In this document: positions 10,788-13,910 of the stretch, piece by piece
Layout: every line of letters begins with the position of its first letter
How positions within the stretch are numbered: position 1 is the stretch's first letter
Source of the DNA: Lysobacterales bacterium
GTDB taxonomy: Bacteria; Pseudomonadota; Gammaproteobacteria; Xanthomonadales; SZUA-38
Reading direction: 5' to 3'
Length of the DNA: 29,502 nucleotides
Assembly (NCBI GenBank): GCA_041633655.1
Contig: JBFJNB010000001.1
Span: forward strand, 1-29,502
Translations under genes and position numbers: made by a program
Notes under the pieces: generated by a model
Databases searched by the model: none
What the model was told of the DNA's origin: nothing
What the model saw: the letters and a program-made list of their open reading frames with translations, nothing else

Positions 10788-13700
10788 TCAGCCCGGCCGA
10801 CGCTCGCGAATCCACTTGCGGAACGTCGGTTCCGATACCCCCATCAGGGCGGCGCCGCGGGCGCGGCTCAATCCCAGCTCGACCACCGCCGAACCGAGTT
10901 GATCGCGAATGAAATTGAGCACGTTGTCGATGGCATCGACCTCGTTGGAAAGCAGCCGCTTCAACGCGCGAGAGATTCGGCCGCTCGGGTCGAGTTCCGC
11001 GGAACGGTCCTCGGATTCCTCGGCCCGGGCGAGCTTGCGGCGAAACGTGGACTCCGGAATGCCCAGCAGCGCAGCGGCCCGGTTGGCGACCGCGCCGGCG
11101 TGCTGGAACGCCAGTCTGATGCACAGGTCTTCCAACCAGCCGCCGACGTTGTCCCGATGCTCGTGAACGCAGGCGTGCACCAGCCGGTCGACCCGGGCGC
11201 GCAGCGCCGCAACCGGATCGTCTGGGACCTCATCGGTCGATATCGGCTCCGGCTCCCGCAGCGGGAGTTCCGCCGAGCCGGAAGCGCTCGGCGCCGGCGC
11301 AGCCGGCGGCAACTCGTCCGCGACCGCTTCCTCGTCGGCTTCGCCTTCGACCAGACCGAGATGCCGGGGCTCGATCAGCGCTCCCTTGCAGAGGATCGCG
11401 GCGCGCAGGATGGTATTGCGCAGCTCGCGCACGTTGCCGGGCCAGTGATGGGCGCGCAGTGCGCTCTCGGCGGCCGGGCTCAGCTCGGTCAGCCGGGTCT
11501 GGTATTCGCCCGCGAACTGGCGCAGGAAGTAGCGCGCGATCAAGATCACGTCGCCGTCGCGCTCGCGCAGCGGCGGACATTCGAGCTTGAACACATTCAG
11601 GCGGTAAAACAGGTCGCTGCGGAAACGCCCCGCGTGGACCTCGGCGGCCAGATCCCGGTTGGTCGCCACGATCAGCCGGGTATCGATGCGGCGGGTCTTG
11701 GTGGCTCCCACCGGAGTGTAGCTGCCCTCCTGCACGAACCGCAGCAACTTGGTTTGCAGTTCCATCGGCAGCTCGCCGATCTCGTCCAGAAAAAGGGTGC
11801 CGTTGTCGGCTTGTTCCACCTTGCCCGCCGAATCGCGCGCGGCGCCGGTGAACGCGCCCTTGCGGTGCCCGAACAGTTCGCTCTCCATCAGCTGCGGCAC
11901 GATGGTGCTGCAATCGACGATCACCAGCGTCTGTTCGCGACGCGAGCTGACCGCGTGGATGGTCTGAGCCAGCAGCTCCTTGCCGGTGCCGGACTCCCCG
12001 ACGATCAGTACCGAAGCCTCGGTCGGTGCCACCAGCCGCAGCTCGTCCATCAACTGGGCCATCGCGCTGGATTCGTAGATCAGTTCGTTTTGGTTGACGG
12101 TCTGCTTGAAATCGCGAAGTTCAGTATCGATCTGCTGGCGACGATCGGCCAGCACCAGCGCGCGGTCCAGCGCCATGGCCAGGTATTCGGACAGCGTTTC
12201 GAGAAACTCGACCTGATCGCTGGCGAAGGCCGGCTGGCCGGGGCCGCGACGCAGCAGCAGCAAACCCAGCGGGCGGTCGCCGACGATCAACGGCAGGGCG
12301 TAGTAAGGGCTATCGCCCTCGCCGTCGAACGAAAACACCCGCCGCTCGCCGGTCGACACCGCCTCCAGCATCGATCGCTCCATGCGGGCCGAAAGTTCCA
12401 GGGTCGCGGCGTCCTGGTGCACGTTGCCGCCGCGCGAGGCGGCCGCGAGTTCCAGCCGGCCGGCGGGCGTGCGCACGAAAAGCGCGGTCAGGGTCAGATC
12501 GAACGCCGGCTGCAGCCGGGTGACGATCTGGGTCGCCAGCGCGCCCACGTCGTGGGTGTGCGAGACCACCCGCACGGTGTGCCACAGCAGCATCAGATCG
12601 CGGTAGTCGTCGCTGGAGTGGGCGGTGAACTTGCCGCTCTTGCGGTCGAGATCCCCGGCGAACTGGTGATTGGCCAGCGGGTTCCAGGTCACGATCCGGC
12701 CGCCGCCCGATTCGCGCGCCGCATTCAGCGCCCAACTGGCGCGCCGGAACAGCTCGACCGGCAGGTCCGGCGCCTCCCGGTCGGCCGGCGGCTCGGCCTC
12801 GGCGACGCCGATGCTGAAGCTGAGCTCGGCCCGGCCACCGAGAAAGCGGTACTCGGTCAATTGGCGGTGGATCTTGTCCGCCATCAGGCGCGCCTCGGCC
12901 AGGCCGGTATTGGGCAGGCTGGCGGCGAACACCGCGCCGCCGTAGCGGGTCGCCAGATCGACCAGACGCAAGGCCTGATTGATCAGCTCGCCGGTCTCCT
13001 GCAGCACCACGTTGCCCGCGTTCTGTCCGTGGCGCGCGTTGATCGCTTCCAGGTTGTCGGGGTTGATCAACAGCAGGCTGAACGGCTTGGTGCGGACCAG
13101 CTCCGGCGCGGCGAGCAGGGACTTGTCGCTGGCCAGCGCGGCCTTGGCCGCCGCCGACAGGCGGGCGAGCTGGCGCAACATCATCACCAGGCCCACGACC
13201 TCCCGCCCGTCCGGGCGAATCGGGCCGACGATCCCGTCGACGATTTCGAGCCGATCATCGAACCCGCTGATCTGCAGCGGAAACAACCGCGATACCGCGT
13301 GGGTCGTGATCACCCGCTCGACCATCGCCGCCACTCGCTGGGCGGCCTGCCGCGACACGGTCCGAATCACCGAGCTCCAGTTCCGACCGATGGCCGCTTC
13401 CTTGCTGCAATTGAACAGCTCGCACGCCTCGCGGTTGAGATTGATCACGGCGCCGTCCTTGCCGATGAACACGACCGCGTTGCCGATGCAGGCCAGCGCG
13501 GTATTGAGCAGGTGGCGGCTTTCGATCAGCTCGCGCTCGCGCCGGTGCTTGTCGAGCGCCATTTCGATCGCGATTTCCAGATCCGGGTTCTCGATCGGCT
13601 TCAGCAGGTAACCCTGCGGCTCGACCTGCTGGGCACGCTTCAGGGTCTCCACGTCGGAGTGGGCGGTGACGAAGACCACCGCGACCTGGTGGCGCAGCTT

Positions 13701-13910
13701 GATCTGGCGGATCGCCTCTATGCCGTCGATCTCACCGCGCATGCGAATGTCCGACAGGATCAAGTCCGGGCCGTGCGTGGCCACCTCGGGGATCGCGCTC
13801 GCGCCGTCATGGGCGATGCCGACGACCCGATATCCGAGTTTGGTCAGGCTGCGCTTGAGGCCCTCGGCCACCAGCGCTTCGTCCTCAATGATGTAAATCG
13901 CTGCTTTCAT
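10788..13910 (-). CDS. sigma54-dependent enhancer-binding protein: REC-PAS-GGDEF(degenerate)-GAF-AAA+-tandem HTH (alternative start 13925)
   Basis: REC IYIIEDE...DLILSDIRM...FVTA...LLKP; PAS ([23 protein letters not shown]); GGDEF fold with GGAVF; GAF ([18 protein letters not shown]...[12 protein letters not shown]). AAA+ motifs: Walker [24 protein letters not shown], Walker [27 protein letters not shown]. Two C-terminal HTH-like segments. Confidence 0.92.

Follow-up and report, generated by a model that had tools for sequence, protein, structure and literature searches.

A gene on the minus strand of a 29,502-nucleotide stretch of Lysobacterales DNA (assembly GCA_041633655.1, contig JBFJNB010000001.1, positions 1 to 29,502; hereafter the window) encodes a transcriptional activator of 1045 amino acids, in which receiver (REC), PAS, degenerate GGDEF (GGDEF*) and GAF domains precede an AAA+ domain and two helix-turn-helix (HTH) units. 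Judging from sequence and predicted structure, we consider it rather probable that this protein is a sigma-54-dependent response regulator with two inputs, phosphorylation of D59 in the REC domain and binding of cyclic diguanylate (c-di-GMP) at the I-site of the GGDEF* domain. The activator probably switches on the adjoining genes for secreted proteases and c-di-GMP enzymes. Conservation is reported throughout for a set of 61 full-length relatives with 35-58% identity to the activator.

Coordinates of the domains and of neighbouring features are collected in Table 1. An alternative start of the gene at Met6 (position 13910) is possible, and a database protein with 99% identity to the activator (P0003) is 1040 amino acids long. 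The Pfam match to GGDEF enters the profile only at position 29, so that the N-terminal part of the domain is unmatched, and the AAA+ lid is followed by a 46-residue acidic linker that leads to the HTH units. The initial annotation had described REC, PAS, GGDEF* and GAF domains ahead of an intact AAA+ domain with a GAFTGA loop, and this stack is real by its Pfam matches and by the motifs found at their coordinates, among them DLILSD at 13749-13766; the span given for it, 11380-13910, covers residues 6-848, from Met6 through the AAA+ lid, and omits the C-terminal 200 amino acids with the two HTH units. The plus-strand open reading frame (ORF) at 10260-13973 (1237 amino acids) was rejected as an antisense artefact of DNA of 65-68% GC; the domain scan covered the minus-strand protein, to which all domain matches at 10788-13925 belong.

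Table 1. Domains of the activator and neighbouring features of the window
Feature	Position	Strand	Basis
Whole gene, REC-PAS-GGDEF*-GAF-AAA+-HTH-HTH activator	10788-13925	-	ORF call and Pfam
REC, residues 10-120; phospho-acceptor D59 at 13749-13751	13566-13898	-	Pfam Response_reg, residues 10-120, 1e-23
PAS, residues 148-256	13158-13484	-	Pfam PAS_4, residues 149-253, 3e-8
Degenerate GGDEF domain, residues 282-414	12684-13082	-	Pfam GGDEF, residues 278-408, 1.3e-17, 64.5 bits (cut-off 23.8); PDB sequence/profile search; AlphaFold2 model superposition
I-site RLVD (R320, D323), 5-residue spacer and degenerate signature GGAVF	12927-12968	-	PleD alignment
GAF, residues 437-568, poorly conserved	12222-12617	-	Pfam GAF_3, residues 461-588, 1e-11
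Helix joining GAF to AAA+, 43 residues, 569-611	12093-12221	-	AlphaFold2 model, DSSP
AAA+ sigma-54 interaction domain and lid, residues 616-857	11355-12080	-	Pfam Sigma54_activat, residues 616-781, 2e-66; Pfam AAA_lid_14, residues 787-857; structure match
First Fis-like HTH unit, residues 904-978	10992-11216	-	Weak HTH_8 match, model helices
Second Fis-like HTH unit (GVSEPTFRK), residues 983-1042	10800-10979	-	Conservation, homology to unit 1
Putative enhancer triad (999, 1031, 1051; span 999-1065) and sigma-54 promoter TGGCAC-N5-TTGC (1119-1133), before REC-PAS-GGDEF-EAL	999-1133	+	
REC-PAS-GGDEF-EAL phosphodiesterase gene	1171-3351	+	Domain annotation
Putative enhancer triad (3803-3861) and sigma-54 promoter (3913-3927), before first S8 subtilase	3803-3927	+	
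Putative enhancer triad (8383-8441) and sigma-54 promoter (8496-8510, one mismatch), before third S8 subtilase	8383-8510	+	
Third S8 subtilase	8533-10770	+	Domain annotation
Y_Y_Y sensor with beta-propeller and degenerate GGDEF (READ..GEDQF), divergent neighbour	13995-17342	+	Domain annotation
Beta-propeller/Y_Y_Y HisKA_2 histidine kinase	17323-20928	+	Domain annotation

A fold search with the full-length AlphaFold2 model (predicted local distance difference test, pLDDT, 87) returned AAA+ structures only, and a separate model of the GGDEF segment was therefore needed. This model, of residues 272-425, has a pLDDT of 89.6 and a predicted template modelling score (pTM) of 0.85, and it superposes on the GGDEF domain of PleD with a template modelling (TM) score of 0.80 and a root-mean-square deviation of 1.3-1.8 Å over about 140 columns. 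Compared with PDB sequences, the segment gave 39 matches, all of them GGDEF-domain proteins (top matches GcbC, 3e-12, and PleD, 1.6e-11), and a profile of 65 family segments gave 52 matches, again all GGDEF domains (5euh, 1.5e-25; PleD, 6e-23). By sequence search, profile and superposition alike, the GGDEF fold that had been claimed for the middle segment is secure.

The active site of the domain has decayed. PleD residues D327, D344, E370 and E371, which bind metal and substrate, are replaced by N, N, A and V in the activator; the signature GG[D/E]EF is kept in 0 of the 61 relatives, where GGAVF, GGSVF, GDRQL, SSSHL and ADSLL are found among other variants; and the loop with the guanine-binding Asn is deleted in 33-35 of them. 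By these residues the domain is degenerate, as first annotated, and catalytically dead, and an active diguanylate cyclase was ruled out on the state of GG[D/E]EF, the metal-binding Asp and the guanine-binding Asn/Asp. The core of the I-site is retained: R320 and D323 align with R359 and D362 of PleD, lie five residues ahead of the former signature, and are invariant in all 61 relatives; strict invariance is found in just 9 of the 133 domain columns, these two included. The RxxD motif is also retained in a sister family without REC, for example as RSSD..GGAVF. On this pattern of conservation, the I-site core of a dead GGDEF domain is under strict selection. Because RxxD is invariant throughout the relatives while the catalytic motif has decayed, we infer that c-di-GMP is bound at the RxxD I-site of the GGDEF* domain, and the c-di-GMP input that had been suggested for the activator is a plausible and well-supported inference on this ground.

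The REC domain carries the residues of a phosphorylatable receiver, namely an acidic pair (E14, D15), the phospho-acceptor Asp (D59), a Thr/Ser (T87) and a Lys (K109), of which D59 and K109 never vary in the relatives and the other three are conserved to 90% or more; in the full-length model a 35-residue linker helix (residues 113-147) connects REC to PAS. A HisKA_2 kinase gene is linked to the activator gene in 7/7 REC-type loci examined (the window, G007 and L089-L093), and phosphorylation, another input proposed at the outset, is thus plausible and well supported; the linked Y_Y_Y HisKA_2 kinase is the probable cognate kinase of the activator.

In the AAA+ domain 76 of 166 columns reach 90% conservation or more, all catalytic motifs included. 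The Walker A motif GESGTGKE (11976-11999), D714-E715, R769, R775 and R833 are invariant, as are G690, T693 and A695 of the GAFTGA loop (11841-11858, residues 690-695), and the domain matches the AAA+ domains of NtrC1, FleQ and ZraR with target-normalised TM scores of at least 0.9. The first HTH unit, with a weak Pfam match to HTH_8 at residues 946-967, has T960, R962 and R963 invariant and P957 at least 90% conserved, and the second has S1031, P1033 and T1034 invariant; the two units are themselves homologues (38% over 39 amino acids), and both are conserved. The genome encodes rpoN (G000:C254). With all the defining features present at the level of sequence, the activator is a member of the bacterial enhancer-binding proteins (bEBPs).

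The sensing of a small ligand by PAS or GAF, the third input proposed in the initial annotation, is unsupported. GAF is the least conserved folded domain of the protein: of its 132 columns just 4 reach 90%, and it shows no sign of a conserved ligand pocket; since no close solved relative of the GAF segment was found, no ligand can be proposed for it. The PAS domain has an invariant DGxxGP motif (D230, G231, G234, P235), beyond which no cofactor signature was recognisable. GAF is joined to AAA+ by a long helix (Table 1); long linker helices are characteristic of signalling dimers and of activators under negative control, NtrC1 for one.

The architecture is not confined to the one activator of the initial annotation: about 65 clusters at 90% identity have the full architecture, and a sister family without REC-PAS has an N-terminal region of about 200 amino acids followed by GGDEF*, GAF, AAA+ and two HTH units, with RxxD-N5-GGAVF kept. 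Named members of the family come from Halieaceae, Pseudomonadales, Thalassomonas actiniarum and one Xanthomonadales metagenome-assembled genome (MAG), and the genome of the window, itself a 69%-complete MAG, belongs to the same taxonomic family as the latter; it also has one copy of the sister family, on contig 54. With a GGDEF*-GAF query, matches (E <=1e-25) came from at least 3 of 400 genomes sampled evenly across the class, the window's own genome included; with few candidates scored in each genome, this figure is a lower bound. No large cluster with the architecture of the activator was found in the ESM Atlas, only REC-PAS-GGDEF proteins. Scanning contigs with the family alignment, on the basis of generic peptide patterns for AAA+ and REC, brought up mainly common activators of the NtrC type; the part from GGDEF to HTH was covered by L001 (Alteromonadaceae) alone, and the scan was uninformative on context. 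The family is small, rare, unstudied and gammaproteobacterial.

Three putative sigma-54 promoters in the window precede the phosphodiesterase gene and the first and third S8 subtilase genes (Table 1), and all three have a triad of YCGAAAAAWHYGGCG 55-120 bp upstream. The promoter pattern alone is not enriched in the window (4 matches vs 1.9 expected); the upstream motif YCGAAAAAWHYGGCG has 10 matches vs 0.97 expected, a count reached in none of 100 shuffles. The motif is asymmetric and about 15 bp long (CGAAAAA-N3-GGCG), and the triads are of mixed orientation; the asymmetry may be connected with the two HTH units of the activator. A matrix built from nine sites of the window gave its best or near-best matches directly upstream of sigma-54 promoters in L089, L091, L092 and L093; in L095 the motif lies within the divergent intergenic region upstream of the activator, and in G007 the best matches fall in the intergenic stretch ahead of the activator gene. 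Triads are present at 13116-13174 of L089 and at 8803-8868 of L095, and a -24/-12 element stands between activator and subtilase genes in four distant loci. The motif is thus kept across genomes whose activators share only 37-58% identity. A perfect sigma-54 promoter lies ahead of the cyclase gene in L097, a locus of the sister family. The divergent starts of the activator and Y_Y_Y-GGDEF* genes of the window are about 70-85 bp apart (13926-13994); neither a sigma-54 element nor the enhancer motif was found in this intergenic region, and its counterpart in G007 has three copies of the motif.

Gene context was compared at six homologue loci, those of Thalassomonas (CP059735), a Halieaceae MAG, three other assemblies or metagenome contigs, and G007. 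The genes that recur there encode the activator, at least one large protein, a beta-propeller/Y_Y_Y HisKA_2 kinase and a REC-PAS-GGDEF-EAL protein, and this cassette is kept across Xanthomonadales, Thalassomonas actiniarum, Halieaceae and other loci with proteins 37-58% identical. The large proteins have no precomputed Pfam hit, yet they are 35-54% identical to the three S8 subtilases of the window. Subtilases beside activator homologues are all homologous to one another and carry C-terminal aromatic hexapeptide repeats (WADGYL, WNETSI, WQEGMT, WNTGTL, FFNDSY), located in the window at 5954-6175, 8143-8361 and 10501-10770 and present also in L089-L093, L095 and L097. Nearly all of these subtilases end in a W-V/A-x-x-E/Q tail, absent from that of L089, which may be a sorting or anchoring signal.

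The EAL domain encoded in the window has all its catalytic motifs intact (EALLR, EITE, DDFGTG, KID, EGVE, QGF). RxxD is kept at the canonical spacing in the other two GGDEF domains of the window, as READ..GEDQF in the Y_Y_Y sensor and as RDVD..SADTF in the phosphodiesterase, and the orthologue of the sensor in G007 has GGDQF. Loci of the sister family have the same kind of subtilase, a GGDEF-EAL protein and a Y_Y_Y-GGDEF protein whose GGDEF motif is intact. In a paralogous cassette on contig 54 of the window's genome (L094, 201-7676), a REC-less activator, GGDEF*(RQTD..GGAVF)-GAF-AAA+, is accompanied by an HDOD protein and by a Y_Y_Y sensor whose cyclase motif is intact (RSSD..GGDEF); L097 and L098 have this arrangement too. 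Two genes for TonB-dependent receptors lie downstream of the cassette in the window (23508-25610 and 27308-29464), and the homologous loci L092 and L093 are flanked by such genes too; these receptors may link the proteases to uptake of their products.

Taken together, these features are consistent with the following circuit. The linked periplasmic beta-propeller/Y_Y_Y HisKA_2 kinase would phosphorylate D59, and would probably also phosphorylate the receiver of the phosphodiesterase, which is clearly similar to the REC domain of the activator, while c-di-GMP would bind the RxxD motif of the dead GGDEF* domain between PAS and GAF. Holding the AAA+ domains in an inactive dimer is the role of REC or GAF modules in NtrC1, DctD and NorR; in the activator GAF and the 43-residue helix probably do the same, and phosphorylation and c-di-GMP state would jointly set assembly of the AAA+ ring by way of GAF and the helix. 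The active protein would bind triads of the CGAAAAA-N3-GGCG site through its two HTH units and, once bound to DNA, would open the sigma-54 promoters of the repeat-tailed secreted S8 subtilases and of the EAL phosphodiesterase of the cassette. Since the activator appears to drive a phosphodiesterase gene, there would be feedback on c-di-GMP; inhibition of the activator by c-di-GMP would make this feedback positive, and activation would make it negative. By analogy we lean slightly towards inhibition, because c-di-GMP inhibits the ATPase of FleQ and generally represses the extracellular enzymes of xanthomonads.

Several observations weigh against a two-input regulator of this kind. The third I-site residue of PleD, R390, corresponds to K351 in the activator, and the column of PleD R390 and PelD R402 is R or K in 8 of the 61 relatives and otherwise S, A or T, so that the I-site of PleD is only partly reproduced; a second arginine, if required, would have to be supplied from elsewhere, possibly from another domain. 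All three GGDEF domains of the window are degenerate and no intact cyclase is encoded in it, which places the source of c-di-GMP outside the cassette. The enhancer motif is tied to the activator solely by position and co-conservation, and the interdomain geometry of the full-length model is uncertain (pTM 0.54). Retention of RxxD could itself reflect a structural or protein-protein role. If GGDEF* were a structural or dimerisation spacer derived from a fusion of modules, it would bind no nucleotide and REC phosphorylation alone would control the activator; the unconserved R390 position and the want of a cyclase gene in the window would then be explained, and domain shuffling is consistent with the collinearity of REC-PAS-GGDEF in the activator and in the neighbouring phosphodiesterase (27% over 430 amino acids, E 3e-35), a similarity which suggests that the activator originated by joining of a REC-PAS-GGDEF module to a GAF-AAA+ activator. 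A spacer accords poorly with the invariance of R320 and D323 in the relatives and their retention in the sister family, while neighbouring and catalytic positions drift freely, and it is unlikely for the further reason that the sister family has GGDEF*(RxxD)-GAF without REC, and its GGDEF* domain cannot merely relay REC.

Precedent exists also for contacts between GGDEF domains, which are cross-linked by c-di-GMP dimers in PleD and WspR, and the RxxD motif might serve, in place of sensing free c-di-GMP, to bind the adjacent Y_Y_Y-GGDEF sensor through its GGDEF domain, so that sensor and activator form a direct complex, whether or not they share a c-di-GMP dimer. A Y_Y_Y-GGDEF gene adjoins the activator gene in the window, in G007, in Thalassomonas and in 3/3 sister-family loci examined, but loci of the Halieaceae/Pseudomonadales type (L091-L093) keep RxxD with no such gene adjoining, and we regard this role as improbable, somewhat more so than that of a spacer. 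Degenerate GGDEF domains that sense guanosine triphosphate (GTP) are known, and a report of GTP level, or of another nucleotide, from the former active site, as in Caulobacter PdeA, might be read from the equivalent of PleD N335 that the activator keeps; the substrate-binding positions are unconserved, however, the loop that carries them is the one so often deleted, and the metal-binding acids are lost, all of which makes such sensing very improbable. Sensing of c-di-GMP might alternatively fall to the AAA+ domain, about 47% identical to that of FleQ, with GGDEF* irrelevant to it. The c-di-GMP residues of FleQ are R144 in the linker, R185 after Walker A, E330 and R334 (PMC10723142). Their counterparts in the activator are N613, Q654, Y799 and Q803, and across the family the columns hold S/G, R (45/61), H (53/61) and variable residues, so that only R185 is conserved, and we give FleQ-type sensing hardly any credence. 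The residue after Walker A (Q654, at 11964-11966) is Gln in both the activator and its G007 orthologue, and K or S in further relatives. The state of the residues speaks against cyclase activity, against GTP sensing at the former active site and against FleQ-type binding, all of which were rejected, and phosphorylation of D59 together with c-di-GMP binding at the I-site is the reading that we favour.

FleQ, FlrA and VpsR of Pseudomonas and Vibrio are likewise c-di-GMP-responsive AAA+ regulators of the NtrC family, and share the C-terminal Fis-type HTH. They bind c-di-GMP on AAA+ or its interfaces, without a GGDEF domain, whereas the activator has its own I-site GGDEF* as well as a phosphorylatable REC, PAS, GAF and two HTH units. 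A dead GGDEF domain with RxxD five residues before the former GG[DE]EF is found in PelD of P. aeruginosa, PopA of C. crescentus and SgmT of M. xanthus, as in the activator. PelD also pairs GAF with GGDEF*, although in the order GAF then GGDEF and in a membrane-bound protein, and its third residue, R402 (the R390 type of PleD), is the one not conserved in the activator family. PopA and SgmT are two-component proteins, and SgmT/DigR controls genes for matrix and secreted proteases; none of the three is an AAA+ protein or a transcription activator, unlike the protein described here. PleD (REC-REC-GGDEF), the best structural match of GGDEF*, combines receiver and GGDEF as the activator does, but is an active cyclase with GGEEF and uses its I-site for product inhibition; in the activator catalysis is lost and the output is transcription.

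In NifA, NorR and FhlA, as in the activator, GAF lies directly N-terminal of AAA+, where it probably represses AAA+ intramolecularly or holds the dimer. The GAF ligand sites of those proteins are conserved (for 2-oxoglutarate, iron-NO and formate), whereas GAF is the domain most free to vary in the activator and stands behind REC-PAS-GGDEF*. NtrC1 and DctD share with the activator a phosphorylatable REC and a long helix before AAA+, which suggests an off-state dimer released before ring assembly; the activator differs in having three extra domains between REC and AAA+ and in the position of the long helix, which follows GAF and not REC. In the literature covered by full-text searches, outside of which most subscription journals fall, no GGDEF domain inside an enhancer-binding protein was described, and the initial view that the architecture is foreign to characterised bEBPs holds to that extent. 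As far as covered here, reviews give for bEBPs only c-di-GMP binding mediated by AAA+.

The component parts are familiar and their combination is undescribed. The known c-di-GMP-responsive sigma-54 activators FleQ, FlrA and VpsR read the messenger by way of the ATPase domain, each differently. We see about an even chance that GGDEF*-GAF-AAA+-HTH-HTH proteins constitute an undescribed class of c-di-GMP-responsive sigma-54 activators, in which an I-site domain and not the ATPase reads the messenger, and that together with the Y_Y_Y kinase and the co-regulated EAL phosphodiesterase they form a self-contained logic gate of phosphorelay and c-di-GMP, with feedback, that times the production of repeat-tailed subtilases. 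If so, the modular I-site GGDEF domain would be a second, transferable route from c-di-GMP to enhancer-dependent transcription. Sensor kinase, activator, probable DNA sites, three sigma-54 promoters, phosphodiesterase and protease outputs would make up a circuit within about 20 kb, conserved as a cassette over several gammaproteobacterial orders and directly testable because it recurs in a cultured strain, Thalassomonas actiniarum. Such a circuit would also give access, by way of their regulation, to secreted subtilases with Trp-hexapeptide repeat tails, a class as yet uncharacterised.

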